A DNA stretch of 64,000 bases from Escherichia coli. GTDB lineage: Bacteria; Pseudomonadota; Gammaproteobacteria; Enterobacterales; Enterobacteriaceae. The notes under the pieces were generated by a model that did not search any database, was not told the DNA's origin, and was given only the letters and a program-made list of their open reading frames with translations. The stretch lies in NCBI RefSeq assembly GCF_003334305.1, contig NZ_QOWS01000022.1; one strand, written 5' to 3'. Below are positions 39,326 to 41,919 of this stretch, piece by piece; position 1 is the first letter of the stretch, and each line of letters opens with the position of its first letter. The position numbers and the translations under genes are program-made.

Positions 39326-39495
39326 TGAAAGAACCTTTTTACATTATGAGCGTCAATATCAGTGTACCGTTAAATCCGATGATTCGGGTTTGCGTAACGC
39401 CGCGCGAAACATGAGCGGATACCACAGAATTTCCCATGACTTTCTGCTATCCTTGCCGCGCATTTGCATTATTAACCAGAGGCTTTACATCGTTT

Positions 39496-41919
39496 ATGTC
39501 CGGCTGGCCACGAATTTACTACAAATTACTGAATTTACCATTAAGCATCCTGGTAAAAAGCAAGTCTATTCCGGCAGATCCTGCCCCGGAACTGGGGCTG
39601 GATACCTCTCGTCCAATTATGTACGTTTTACCGTACAACTCGAAAGCAGATTTGCTGACGTTGCGCGCCCAGTGTCTGGCTCATGACTTGCCTGACCCGT
39701 TAGAGCCGCTGGAAATCGACGGCACGCTACTGCCGCGCTATGTGTTCATTCACGGCGGGCCGCGTGTGTTCACCTATTACACGCCGAAAGAAGAGTCTAT
39801 TAAGCTGTTCCACGACTATCTTGATTTGCACCGCAGCAACCCAAATCTGGATGTGCAGATGGTGCCAGTATCGGTGATGTTTGGTCGCGCGCCGGGGCGT
39901 GAAAAAGGCGAAGTAAACCCGCCGCTGCGTATGCTTAACGGCGTACAAAAATTTTTCGCCGTACTGTGGCTCGGTCGCGACAGTTTTGTGCGTTTCTCGC
40001 CGTCAGTTTCTCTGCGCCGCATGGCCGATGAACACGGCACAGATAAAACTATCGCTCAGAAACTGGCGCGCGTGGCGCGTATGCACTTTGCCCGTCAACG
40101 TCTGGCTGCTGTGGGCCCACGTCTGCCTGCTCGTCAGGATCTGTTTAATAAGCTGCTCGCCTCCCGCGCCATTGCCAAAGCGGTAGAAGATGAAGCGCGC
40201 AGCAAAAAAATCTCCCATGAAAAAGCGCAGCAGAACGCGATTGCGCTGATGGAAGAGATTGCGGCGAATTTCTCTTACGAGATGATCCGCCTGACTGACC
40301 GCATTCTGGGCTTCACCTGGAACCGACTTTATCAGGGCATCAACGTCCATAACGCCGAGCGCGTTCGCCAGCTGGCCCACGACGGTCATGAGCTGGTGTA
40401 TGTGCCTTGCCACCGCAGTCACATGGACTACCTGCTACTTTCTTACGTGCTGTACCACCAGGGGCTGGTGCCGCCGCATATCGCCGCCGGGATCAACCTG
40501 AACTTCTGGCCGGCCGGGCCGATTTTCCGCCGTCTGGGGGCGTTCTTTATTCGCCGTACTTTTAAAGGCAATAAACTTTATTCCACCGTTTTCCGTGAGT
40601 ATCTCGGCGAACTGTTCAGCCGTGGTTATTCCGTCGAGTACTTCGTGGAAGGCGGTCGTTCCCGCACGGGGCGTTTGCTGGATCCGAAAACCGGTACGCT
40701 GTCGATGACCATTCAGGCGATGCTGCGTGGCGGCACGCGTCCGATTACGCTGATTCCGATCTATATCGGTTATGAGCACGTCATGGAAGTGGGTACTTAC
40801 GCCAAAGAACTGCGCGGCGCGACGAAAGAGAAAGAGAGCCTGCCGCAGATGCTGCGCGGTTTAAGCAAGCTGCGTAATCTCGGTCAGGGTTACGTCAACT
40901 TCGGTGAACCAATGCCGTTGATGACCTACCTTAACCAGCACGTACCAGACTGGCGTGAATCTATCGATCCCATCGAAGCGGTGCGTCCGGCCTGGTTAAC
41001 GCCGACGGTCAATAATATTGCTGCCGATCTGATGGTACGCATTAACAACGCAGGCGCGGCAAACGCCATGAACCTGTGCTGTACTGCGCTACTGGCATCA
41101 CGTCAGCGCTCACTCACCCGCGAGCAGTTAACCGAGCAACTCAACTGCTACCTGGATCTGATGCGCAACGTACCTTACTCCACGGACTCTACCGTTCCTT
41201 CAGCCAGCGCCAGCGAGCTTATCGATCACGCGCTGCAAATGAACAAGTTTGAAGTCGAGAAAGACACTATCGGCGACATCATCATTCTGCCACGCGAGCA
41301 AGCGGTGCTGATGACCTACTATCGCAACAACATTGCGCATATGTTGGTGCTGCCTTCGCTGATGGCGGCAATTGTCACCCAGCATCGCCACATCTCCCGC
41401 GACGTATTGATGGAGCACGTCAATGTGCTTTACCCAATGCTGAAAGCGGAGCTGTTCCTGCGCTGGGATCGCGACGAGTTGCCGGACGTTATTGATGCGC
41501 TGGCAAATGAGATGCAACGTCAGGGGCTGATTACCCTGCAAGATGATGAGTTGCATATCAACCCGGCGCATTCTCGCACCCTACAGCTGCTGGCCGCAGG
41601 CGCGCGCGAAACGCTGCAACGTTATGCCATCACCTTCTGGTTGTTGAGTGCCAACCCGTCGATCAACCGCGGTACGCTGGAGAAAGAGAGCCGCACCGTC
41701 GCGCAACGTCTCTCCGTGCTGCACGGCATCAACGCGCCGGAGTTCTTCGACAAGGCGGTGTTCAGTTCTCTGGTGCTGACGCTGCGTGATGAAGGGTATA
41801 TCAGCGATAGCGGCGACGCCGAACCGGCAGAAACGATGAAGGTTTATCAGTTGCTGGCGGAGTTGATTACATCAGACGTGCGTTTGACGATTGAGAGTGC
41901 GACGCAGGGCGAAGGGTAA
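39496..41919 (+). CDS. plsB: Glycerol-3-phosphate acyltransferase
   Basis: Acyltransferase HX4D motif (HRSHMD); ATG 39496 ([12 protein letters not shown]) gives 807 aa; ORF track extends 20 codons upstream. Confidence 0.96.

Follow-up and report, generated by a model that had tools for sequence, protein, structure and literature searches.

An upstream in-frame ATG and the over-extended reading frame of plsB, with a probable CUG start of nrfE in the same chromosome segment

Introduction

Which of two in-frame ATG codons opens plsB? We analysed a 64,000-nucleotide stretch of Escherichia coli DNA (the window), a chromosome segment with the gene order gltP-nrf ... plsB ... pgi-lysC. In its list of open reading frames, the longest ORF of plsB spans 39436..41919 on the plus strand and encodes 827 amino acids. 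The original prediction set this ORF against a protein of 807 aa from the ATG at 39496, and both are confirmed, the first by the ORF list and the second by RefSeq (PGAP and K-12). It further stated that the upstream start was a GTG or TTG codon, which is incorrect for plsB as the codon at 39436 is ATG. The same kind of conflict was named for nrfE, dusA, yjbF, pdeC, aphA, ssb, qorA and psiE, and all nine were regarded as annotation issues rather than biology. Here we consider plsB and its leader, the longest-ORF starts across the window, and nrfE.

The translation start of plsB

The plsB reading frame opens at 39415 and there is no stop between ATG 39436 and ATG 39496, so the upstream in-frame ATG (39436..39438, plus strand) opens the ORF of 827 aa. 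We assign the true start to ATG 39496, giving a CDS of 807 aa at 39496..41919 on the plus strand, from RefSeq (PGAP and K-12), the NF003441 profile and the conserved N-terminus. Position 1 of NF003441, the profile of the PlsB family, falls on residue 21 of the 827-aa ORF and the match to TIGR03703 begins at its residue 31.

Comparison of orthologues settles the plsB start directly. An ATG beginning the sequence MSGW(P/Q)RIYY is present at the homologous position in all 79 Enterobacteriaceae loci compared, while an ATG at codon -20 that is open to the real start occurs in only six of them, all Escherichia. More than 50 of the 79 loci carry an in-frame stop at -8 or -16, and in about 70 of the 79 either in-frame stops or the lack of any upstream start precede plsB; three Citrobacter loci do have the upstream ATG, followed by an in-frame TGA. 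In the alignment of the window with these 79 loci the columns of ATG 39436 itself are unconserved.

Scoring of Shine-Dalgarno (SD) pairing gave -5.8 kcal/mol with a spacing of 12 for ATG 39496 and -3.3 with a spacing of 15 for ATG 39436, both of which are weak. An SD-like AGAGG (39479..39483, plus strand), located 12-13 nt upstream of the ATG, is nearly invariant across genera. By itself, scoring of the ribosome-binding site (RBS) gives only a modest separation of the two ATGs. A search of our copy of the PDB for an E. coli PlsB chain returned none; the matches were a 901-aa homologue and mitochondrial GPAT1, which are uninformative for the start. N-terminal sequencing of purified PlsB by Lightner et al. 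in 1983 reportedly fitted the form of 806/807 residues.

We therefore favour, with a probability of roughly 0.93, the reading that 39436-39498 is non-coding and forms the promoter-proximal region and 5' leader of plsB, and that translation from ATG 39496 yields the acyltransferase of 807 aa. The ORF of 827 aa would then exist only since Escherichia happens to have an unconserved in-frame ATG 20 codons upstream without an intervening stop. No change to the current annotation follows, which already has ATG 39496.

Candidate promoters and leader upstream of plsB

The intergenic region in front of plsB is bounded by the annotated divergent neighbour dgkA (38957..39325, minus strand). Within it, 39440..39495 (plus strand) stands out as a block of conserved non-coding sequence, next to the promoter and forming the 5' leader. 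Over the window and the 79 loci its columns are conserved at 0.945 on average, compared with 0.78 at third codon positions of plsB and 0.62 at 39381-39435, and it has no three-base periodicity (0.89/0.94/0.92). Conservation of 94.5% without codon periodicity argues that 39440-39495 is a promoter and leader block. An Rfam scan of 39300-39600 at E <= 5 gave no match, and folding of the plsB leader RNA found nothing beyond shuffled sequences (z = 0.73 and -0.15), so that RNA structure is not the source of the leader conservation.

[quoted passage not shown] 2011, summarised in PMC8138132). Two conserved blocks of the dgkA-plsB spacer, at 39331-39357 and at 39445-39461 (TGnTATyCT and a G+C-rich stretch), are consistent with this arrangement. 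When compared with a pattern of the type GGAACTT-N15/16-TCAAA, the distal block (39331..39357, plus strand) contains GAACCTT-N15-TCAAT, a sigma-E-type motif in conserved sequence and hence the putative distal promoter. In the proximal block, TGcTATCCT (39445..39453, plus strand) is a candidate extended -10 element, as judged from sequence and conservation. Its hexamer has A at position 2 and T at position 6. Across the 80 aligned sequences there is little or no change in the TG, the TAT or the final CT, and variation falls on the 'n' and position 4 of the hexamer, the pattern expected of TGnTAxxxT. Placement of the published P2 on 39445-39453 is thus proposed from sequence and conservation. 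The candidate -10 is followed by the conserved, G+C-rich tgccgcgc (39454..39461, plus strand), a possible discriminator, which would fit the published ppGpp repression of the basal plsB promoter (PMC8138132). The published dual promoter does not, however, account for the conserved sequence 39462-39495, including the SD 12-13 nt from the ATG.

Transcription from a proximal promoter with this extended -10 would begin near 39460, in which case the main plsB mRNA would lack ATG 39436 and only distal transcripts of the sigma-E type would carry it. A generic scan for sigma-70 -35/-10 pairs gave a single match, inside dgkA and at chance level; the scan missed 39445-39453 because it requires a -35 element. 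Among published promoter collections, the supplements of Kim 2012 contain neither plsB nor coordinates 42544xx-42546xx, the text of Rhodius 2006 gives no coordinates, and Shimada 2014 gives a dgkA promoter alone for the dgkA-plsB spacer. A near-invariant leader with an oddly distant SD may be of interest to those who study the control of phospholipid synthesis.

Longest-ORF starts across the window

In each of the nine genes of the original prediction the longest-ORF start does lie upstream of the RefSeq start. The list was nevertheless incomplete, covering nine of the 23 genes so affected. The others are nrfG, nrfB, nrfA, yjcH, yjcB, tyrB, pspG, zur, yjbJ, ubiC, malM, malK, malF and pgi; the start of dinF is disputed as well. 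With 52 genes in the comparison, the proportion is 0.44. We modelled chance by walking upstream from the true start until a start-like codon or a stop was met; the probability of reaching an ATG, GTG or TTG before a stop is 0.50 from base composition and 0.55 from trinucleotide counts, and the observed 23 of 52 does not depart from either (binomial p = 0.41 and 0.13, respectively). There is no excess of overshoot over chance in the window.

For ssb, aphA, qorA and psiE the support for the annotated start is strong, as judged from profiles that begin exactly at the annotated Met and from a better SD. Translation of ssb from ATG 21817 (21281..21817, minus strand, 178 aa; longest-ORF start TTG 21880) places position 1 of NF006533 at residue 22 of the long ORF, behind an SD AGGAG (dG -7.4, spacing 7). 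The start of aphA at ATG 26528 (25815..26528, minus strand, 237 aa) competes with TTG 26768 (317 aa); position 1 of TIGR01672 is residue 81 of the 317-aa ORF, the SD scores are -5.8 for the ATG and +1.9 for the TTG, and a signal-peptide-like N-terminus follows ATG 26528. In qorA (ATG 31731; 31731..32714, plus strand, 327 aa; longest-ORF start TTG 31623) position 1 of NF008024 coincides with residue 37 of the long ORF and the SD is GGAGG (dG -9.3), and in psiE (ATG 55546; 55136..55546, minus strand, 136 aa; longest-ORF start GTG 55681) position 1 of NF002767 coincides with residue 46, with the SD AAGGAGGT (dG -13.0, spacing 5).

The start of yjbF at GTG 59554 (58916..59554, minus strand, 212 aa) is supported by its SD (dG -6.4, spacing 6, against +1.9 for the longest-ORF GTG 59584), by a lipobox and by annotation; there is no family profile for yjbF, and the N-terminus MKRPALILICLLLQAC is a lipoprotein-type signal. 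The pdeC start at ATG 20471 (18885..20471, minus strand, 528 aa) rests on annotation and on the codon being ATG, as a single SD-like AGGAA serves both this codon and the longest-ORF TTG 20480, three residues upstream, with a spacing of 2 or 11. RBS spacing scoring, the check proposed in the original prediction, was thus informative for ssb, aphA, qorA, psiE and yjbF, where the annotated start has the better SD, while it failed to settle plsB and dusA, the most ambiguous pair, when taken alone.

The start of dusA was said to lie between TTG 34299 and ATG 34293 or 34248. The conflict is real, but a fourth in-frame candidate, ATG 34275, had been missed; the four lie in 33256..34299 on the minus strand and ATG 34293 is the annotated start (345 aa). 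No SD was found at the three candidates that were scored (TTG 34299, ATG 34293 and ATG 34248). Published tetracycline ribosome profiling (TetRP; PMC4909307 supplement) flags dusA as 'multiple' and has its major signal at ATG 34275, +18 relative to the MHGNSEM start. Homology was also considered for choosing among the dusA starts and failed, as it begins at residues 26-30 of the 347-aa ORF, downstream of all candidates, and the N-terminal tails of the homologues have anything between 0 and about 20 residues. The same start problem is seen in dinF (36841..38220, minus strand), which was missing from the original list. K-12 RefSeq has ATG 38220 (459 aa) and PGAP has ATG 38166 (441 aa); position 1 of NF007690 is residue 19, and TetRP reports a 'new site' ATG at +54, MAFLTSSDK (PMC4909307 supplement).

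The absence of an SD at the upstream candidates, together with profiles that start from the annotated Met (ssb, aphA, qorA, psiE, plsB), indicates that the overshoots are artefacts of ORF calling. The rule of taking the first ATG, GTG or TTG after a stop would be the common mechanical cause of the other listed conflicts, nrfE excepted. Like the textbook case of longest-ORF over-extension, plsB has a start-like codon upstream in frame with no stop between, and its extension lacks an RBS, is unconserved in orthologues and lies outside the family profile; we find no difference from that case. The RefSeq proteins are revised versions (NP_418465.4 for plsB; yjbF, ubiC, zur, dusA, pspG and yjcB at.3/.4), and the early K-12 model of b4041/plsB was presumably the one of 827 aa. 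In plsB and most of the listed genes the start conflict is thus a routine by-product of the longest-ORF rule. The description as annotation issues holds for plsB, ssb, aphA, qorA and psiE, where the evidence is strong, and for yjbF and pdeC; in nrfE the 'known' start is itself probably wrong. With overshoot in about half of the genes, longest-ORF tracks are unfit for the analysis of N-termini, signal peptides or topology.

It could be argued that some upstream starts are used in the cell. For plsB, distal sigma-E transcripts carrying ATG 39436 could give rise to a minor 827-aa proteoform in Escherichia only, with both ATGs in use. Envelope stress would in that case change the form of the enzyme that opens phospholipid synthesis, and the putative extension of 20 residues is rich in Cys and Phe. 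In its favour, all six Escherichia loci have an open frame from 39436, the sigma-E-type motif at 39331-39357 lies upstream, a distal sigma-E promoter has been described (PMC8138132) and no strong secondary structure is present around ATG 39436. Of 5,426 E. coli genomes, 5,417 are also at least 99% identical over the extension, but this near-invariance is uninformative on coding status and is explained by constraint on promoter and leader, the interval being without codon periodicity. The lack of an SD at ATG 39436 (dG -3.3, spacing 15), the unconserved ATG columns outside Escherichia, the stops that break the frame in most genera and the failure of the family profile to cover the extension make this proteoform very improbable. 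Still less credit is due to the broader proposal that upstream GTG and TTG starts are widely used to make N-terminal proteoforms and are no artefacts of ORF calling. It can draw on the multiple initiation signals at dusA in TetRP (PMC4909307) and on upstream in-frame starts found in E. coli by Ribo-RET, 6 in BW25113 and 36 in BL21 (bioRxiv 10.1101/520783). Against it, the overshoot rate of 44% equals the chance expectation, the upstream candidates are without SD and the profiles of ssb, aphA, qorA, psiE and plsB start at the annotated Met. Of plsB, dusA and dinF, the genes looked for, the main text of that Ribo-RET preprint mentions none (bioRxiv 10.1101/520783).

The start codon of nrfE

For nrfE the original prediction opposed TTG 4456 of the ORF track to a 'known' GTG start given as 4430. 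The conflict is real, although 4430 is the low end of that codon and the K-12 GTG starts at 4432, from which K-12 RefSeq has a protein of 552 aa. The GTG is probably not the start either, and comparative data point to CTG 4492, a codon that neither the ORF track nor the original prediction considered. A 572-aa nrfE from CTG is the PGAP model in both O157:H7 and strain 165, the latter with 100% identity here. Judged from sequence comparison, the most likely start of nrfE is thus the near-cognate CTG 4492, giving a CDS at 2774..4492 (minus strand, 572 aa) that keeps the first transmembrane helix of the family, whereas TTG 4456 and GTG 4432 (4430..4456, minus strand) are probably internal Leu and Val codons.

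The nrfD stop (4512-4514) precedes CTG 4492 by 19 nt. The SD of this CTG, GAGGTG (4497..4502, minus strand), lies 10-15 nt after that stop and is separated from the CTG by the four bases GTTT (4496-4493), the first G of which can extend the pairing; dG is -8.2 with the short and -12.8 with the extended anti-SD. At the competing starts the SD is weak or absent, with -3.4 (TTG 4456), -3.0 and -5.7 (GTG 4432). The location of CTG 4492 directly after the nrfD stop makes translational coupling possible. Salmonella and C. amalonaticus share the arrangement AGGTG-N3-4-NTG and, like E. coli, have CTG as the first codon. The arrangement recurs in two more distant relatives, where the aligned codon behind the same SD is GTG in one and TTG in the other. 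At the position of TTG 4456, Salmonella and Citrobacter carry CTG. The nrfE frame opens at 4522, and before the PEVG motif CTG 4492 is the sole NTG/ATN codon. Of alternatives upstream of 4474, GTG 4499 was rejected as it is out of frame and opens an ORF of only 8 codons, and no in-frame ATT, ATC or ATA is present.

Within codons 2-12 (4489-4457), which include the PExG motif common to the family, substitutions number 2/1/4 by codon position, a coding-like bias to the third. NrfE matches the CcmF/NrfE haem lyase family over its full length (NF007691, TIGR03145, TIGR00353; PF01578, PF16327). Residues 2-572 of the 572-aa form align to positions 1-573 of NF007691 with 1164 bits (cut-off 394), position 2 of TIGR03145 falls on residue 5, and TIGR00353 scores 825.8 (cut-off 569). 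If translation starts at 4492, the N-terminal M-x-PE-x-G motif and the first hydrophobic helix of the family are kept; the first codon differs in being CTG in E. coli, Salmonella and C. amalonaticus and not ATG, GTG or TTG. The hydropathy segment of TM1 lies within the CDS from 4492, and a start at GTG 4432 removes this first hydrophobic helix.

Initiation at codons other than AUG, GUG and UUG occurs in E. coli, where infC and pcnB use AUU, and the weak start codon of infC has a demonstrated autoregulatory role through IF3. NrfE likewise would begin at a near-cognate codon, an NTG at optimal distance from a strong SD. In reporter assays, CUG initiates at about 1-2% of AUG (bioRxiv 10.1101/063800). 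The TetRP supplement, from aerobic cultures, does not contain nrfE (PMC4909307), and the papers returned by our literature search apparently do not concern its start codon.

A canonical start would place initiation at TTG 4456/4453 (560/559 aa) or GTG 4432 (552 aa) and make the 12-20 codons upstream an untranslated remnant. TTG and GTG are canonical codons, K-12 RefSeq has GTG 4432, a start at TTG 4456 leaves a hydrophobic stretch of 19 residues (hydropathy 1.77) and CUG is an inefficient initiator (bioRxiv 10.1101/063800). These points are outweighed by the poorer SDs of the canonical candidates (-3.4, -3.0 and -5.7 against -8.2 to -12.8), by the CTG that replaces TTG 4456 in Salmonella and Citrobacter, and by codons 4489-4457, which vary chiefly at third positions and encode PExG. 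The alignments to TIGR03145 and NF007691 take in the 572-aa form from residue 2-5 on, two other taxa have a canonical GTG or TTG opposite CTG 4492 behind the same SD, and the 552-aa form lacks TM1, so that the topology of the rest would presumably invert. A canonical start is accordingly unlikely. It is instead quite likely that nrfE has a CUG start conserved in E. coli, Salmonella and Citrobacter, and hence that the K-12/UniProt model of 552 aa is without the first membrane helix. That model is probably short by 20 residues and TM1, which would mislead topology models of the NrfEFG haem lyase and the design of expression constructs. A CUG start, once confirmed, would put nrfE among the very few naturally CUG-initiated genes of E. 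coli. The CTG start is already present in NCBI PGAP models and absent from the K-12 reference record.

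Start of plsB

The longest open reading frame (ORF) at plsB in the ORF list spans 39436..41919 on the plus strand (ATG start, 827 aa), whereas the coding sequence (CDS) annotated by both PGAP and the curated K-12 RefSeq record spans 39496..41919 on the same strand (807 aa). Since the 827-aa ORF opens at 39436 and the RefSeq plsB at 39496, the interval 39436-39498 is bounded by the in-frame ATG upstream and the annotated ATG, both included. The original prediction had ascribed such conflicts to upstream GTG/TTG codons; for plsB the upstream codon is an ATG. Four independent lines of evidence, namely family profiles, orthologues, mode of conservation and ribosome binding site (RBS), agree on 39496 as the start.

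In the 827-aa ORF, position 1 of NF003441 (NCBIfam, PlsB) falls on residue 21, and the TIGR03703 match starts at residue 31; the 20-aa extension is covered by neither profile. A scan of species-representative genomes yielded 80 Enterobacteriaceae loci, of which 79 were analysable, and an ATG with MSGW(P/Q)RIYY is present at the position homologous to 39496 in 79/79. An ATG 20 codons upstream with a frame open to the real plsB start is found in six Escherichia loci only. Three Citrobacter loci carry the ATG at −20 with an in-frame TGA four codons later, and in more than 50 of the 79 the frame is interrupted by a stop at 8 or 16 codons before the start. Across the window and the 79 loci, columns 39440-39495 are 94.5% conserved, as compared to 78% for plsB third codon positions and 62% for the adjoining 39381-39435. 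This conservation has no three-base periodicity (0.89/0.94/0.92), and the columns of the ATG itself (39436-39438) are not conserved in the same alignment. Judged from the aligned sequences, such a mode of conservation is the signature of regulatory DNA and not of a coding extension.

No RBS was found at ATG 39436 (Shine-Dalgarno (SD) pairing score, dG, −3.3 kcal/mol). RBS scoring, the check proposed originally, favours 39496 (dG −5.8) but is a weak discriminator for plsB because the only SD-like sequence at the real start is AGAGG, at a distance of 12-13 nt. Lightner et al. 1983 reportedly sequenced the N-terminus of purified PlsB, with a mature form of 806 residues. The 827-aa ORF is a textbook over-extended ORF, current records are already corrected (NP_418465 is at version 4) and nothing new is present in 39436-39498.

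Candidate promoters and leader in the dgkA-plsB spacer

[quoted passage not shown] 2011, as summarised in PMC8138132). In the alignment of the window and 79 loci, the spacer upstream of plsB contains two conserved blocks. One holds a sigma-E-type motif, GAACCTT-N15-TCAAT (39331-39357, plus strand), which is graded as good. The other, starting at 39440, includes TGcTATCCT (39445-39453, plus strand), a candidate extended −10 element. Its TG, its TAT and its closing CT show little or no variation, in contrast to the 'n' and the fourth position of the hexamer, which is what one expects of extended −10 elements. The G+C-rich tgccgcgc directly 3' of it may represent the discriminator of a promoter sensitive to ppGpp. 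Should the extended −10 assignment hold, P2 transcription would start near 39460; the main plsB mRNA, given P2 at this place, would therefore be without ATG 39436. A generic sigma-70 scan, which omits promoters lacking a −35 element, did not report the element at 39445-39453.

The leader 39462-39495 is almost invariant across some 30 Enterobacteriaceae genera, including the AGAGG that lies 12-13 nt before the ATG. No Rfam family matched this stretch, and its predicted structure did not exceed that of shuffled controls.

Longest-ORF starts across the window

The longest ORF overshoots, that is, starts upstream of the annotated start, in 23 of 52 genes in the window (0.44). All nine genes named in the original prediction do so where it had placed them, and its list is incomplete. 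In our chance model, the sequence is read upstream from the real start until it reaches either a stop (TAA, TAG, TGA) or a start-like triplet (ATG, GTG, TTG). These two kinds of triplets are almost equally frequent under the composition of the window. Base frequencies predict an overshoot of 0.50 and trinucleotide counts one of 0.55, and the observed fraction does not differ from either (p = 0.41 and p = 0.13, respectively). The start conflicts arise mechanically from the 'first start after a stop' rule, with no excess over chance. Larger overshoots outside the named genes are seen in ubiC (202 vs 165 aa, 43456-43567), malK (401 vs 371 aa, 49087-49177) and pspG (150 vs 80 aa, 33122-33332); in each of the three the sole good SD is that of the annotated ATG.

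For ssb, aphA, qorA and psiE, the family profile begins exactly with the annotated Met, which is residue 22, 81, 37 and 46, respectively, in the long ORF. The SD at this Met (dG −7.4, −5.8, −9.3 and −13.0 in the same order) is better than at the upstream candidates (+1.9 to −5.7). There is no family profile for yjbF; its GTG 59554 has an SD of −6.4 at a spacing of 6, as against +1.9 for the upstream candidate, and the product begins MKRPALILICLLLQAC, a lipoprotein-type signal. The two pdeC candidates are three codons apart and have one SD-like element in common, and we favour ATG 20471 on annotation and codon identity. The view that these are annotation issues and not biology was largely right, the conflicts being annotation artefacts, but nrfE, dusA and dinF need corrections.

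Start of nrfE

The K-12 RefSeq record starts nrfE at GTG 4432 (552 aa) and the ORF track at TTG 4456 (560 aa), while PGAP gives 572 aa from CTG at 4492 in strain 165 (100% identical here) and O157:H7. A 572-aa cluster, of 5,145 member sequences, bears the NCBI name for E. coli. The original candidates were TTG 4456 and a 'GTG 4430'; the latter is the codon at 4432-4430, named there by its lower coordinate although it lies on the minus strand. Neither is likely, as profiles, SD, cross-species DNA and hydropathy favour CTG 4492, to which we give a probability of about 0.75.

In the 572-aa form, residue 5 matches position 2 of TIGR03145, and the NF007691 match spans residues 2-572. N-termini of CcmF/NrfE homologues have the motif M-x-PE-x-G and then a hydrophobic helix, and E. 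coli NrfE from 4492 reads LDVFLPEVGFLALLLSLGV. The frame opens at 4522 and its sole near-cognate codon before PEVG is CTG 4492. This CTG is preceded by GAGGTG and four bases (GTTT), where the first G can extend the pairing; the dG is −8.2, or −12.8 with an extended anti-SD. Because the nrfD stop lies 19 nt upstream, translational coupling of nrfD and nrfE seems possible. Five E. coli strains, one Salmonella locus and one C. amalonaticus locus have CTG at the aligned codon, and two more distant loci have GTG (L091) and TTG (L093); AGGTG-N3-4 precedes this codon in all of these. In a second Salmonella/Citrobacter arrangement the spacer is lost and a TTG three codons upstream, overlapping the nrfD stop, is used. 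Across codons 2-12, differences fall mostly on the third position, with counts of 2/1/4 by codon position within the close set and 6/2/10 when all seven sequences are included.

A start at TTG 4456/4453 is improbable; TTG 4456 aligns with CTG in Salmonella and Citrobacter. GTG 4432, the choice of the K-12 record, is very improbable: the first helix covers about residues 3-31 of the 572-aa form by hydropathy, and a product from GTG 4432 keeps 11 of its residues (maximum 19-mer hydropathy 0.89) and would be without TM1. On the other side, CUG initiates at only ~1-2% of AUG in reporters (bioRxiv 10.1101/063800). The preferred CTG start is already used by the NCBI PGAP models, though not by the K-12 reference record. 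Among E. coli genes it is comparable to infC and pcnB, with their rare non-canonical starts; it is not known to have a regulatory role.

A seven-G run close to the nrfE 3' end (CTGGGGGGGAGG; 2844-2850, minus strand) has one G fewer in E2865 and ATCC 43886, because of which PGAP labels their nrfE 'frameshifted'; reading in the shifted frame ends after 554 residues. The difference could be a real homopolymer polymorphism or an assembly error. The coding sequences of nrfE and nrfF share 8 nt (2774-2781). Database proteins of Salmonella and Citrobacter include 737-740-aa NrfE-NrfF fusions (NCBI names NrfF or NrfEF), and E. coli predictions of 650-665 aa hold CcmF and CcmH domains together.

Starts of dusA and dinF

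Four in-frame dusA candidates lie within 51 nt, namely TTG 34299, ATG 34293 (annotated, 345 aa), ATG 34275 and ATG 34248. No SD was found at the three scored (34299, 34293 and 34248), and homology is not seen before residues 26-30 of the long ORF, homologues having tails of 0 to ~20 residues. Tetracycline ribosome profiling (TetRP) lists yjbN (dusA) as 'multiple' and places its major signal +18 relative to the MHGNSEM start (PMC4909307 supplement); this position is ATG 34275, which the original prediction had missed. The dusA start is a real ambiguity.

For dinF (36841-38220, minus strand), also outside the original list, K-12 RefSeq gives 459 aa from ATG 38220, identical to the longest ORF. 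PGAP (ATG 38166, 441 aa), NF007690, whose position 1 is residue 19 of the 459-aa form, and the published TetRP 'new site' at +54, MAFLTSSDK (PMC4909307 supplement), all point to ATG 38166.

Gene order and other features

A 1.2-kb probe around the plsB finding had a match in every one of the 5,426 complete genomes of E. coli, with 100% identity to several non-K-12 strains. Each annotated CDS was placed in window coordinates by BLAST. The gene order, as in E2865 and K-12 MG1655 RefSeq, is gltP, nrfGFEDCBA, acs, yjcH, actP, ..., soxSR, pdeC, yjcB, ssb, uvrA, ..., aphA, tyrB, alr, dnaB, qorA, pspG, dusA, ..., zur, dinF, lexA, dgkA, and finally plsB, ubiAC, the mal regulon, xylE, psiE, yjbEFGH, pgi, lysC.

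yjcF (12868-14160) is an intact 430-aa ORF in the window and has an internal stop in E2865. alr (29083-30180) ends at 29101 in the window (359 aa, as in K-12) and reads through to 365 aa in E2865. In the malM-lamB spacer (~46418-46559), 91 bp of E2865 are absent from the window, and the coordinate offset shifts by 91 there. PGAP calls two minus-strand genes frameshifted pseudogenes in a near-identical strain: a SopA-family gene (43679-45259; yjbI in K-12) and a DUF2713 gene (34656-35641), which in K-12 is the separate yjbL and yjbM. Rfam matches above the gathering score are sraL/RyjA sRNA (17876-18016), STnc430 downstream of pgi (60107-60256) and the lysine riboswitch upstream of lysC (62151-62347) on the plus strand, and naRNA4 (REP-derived) elements at 10568-10638 and 50706-50776 on the minus strand.
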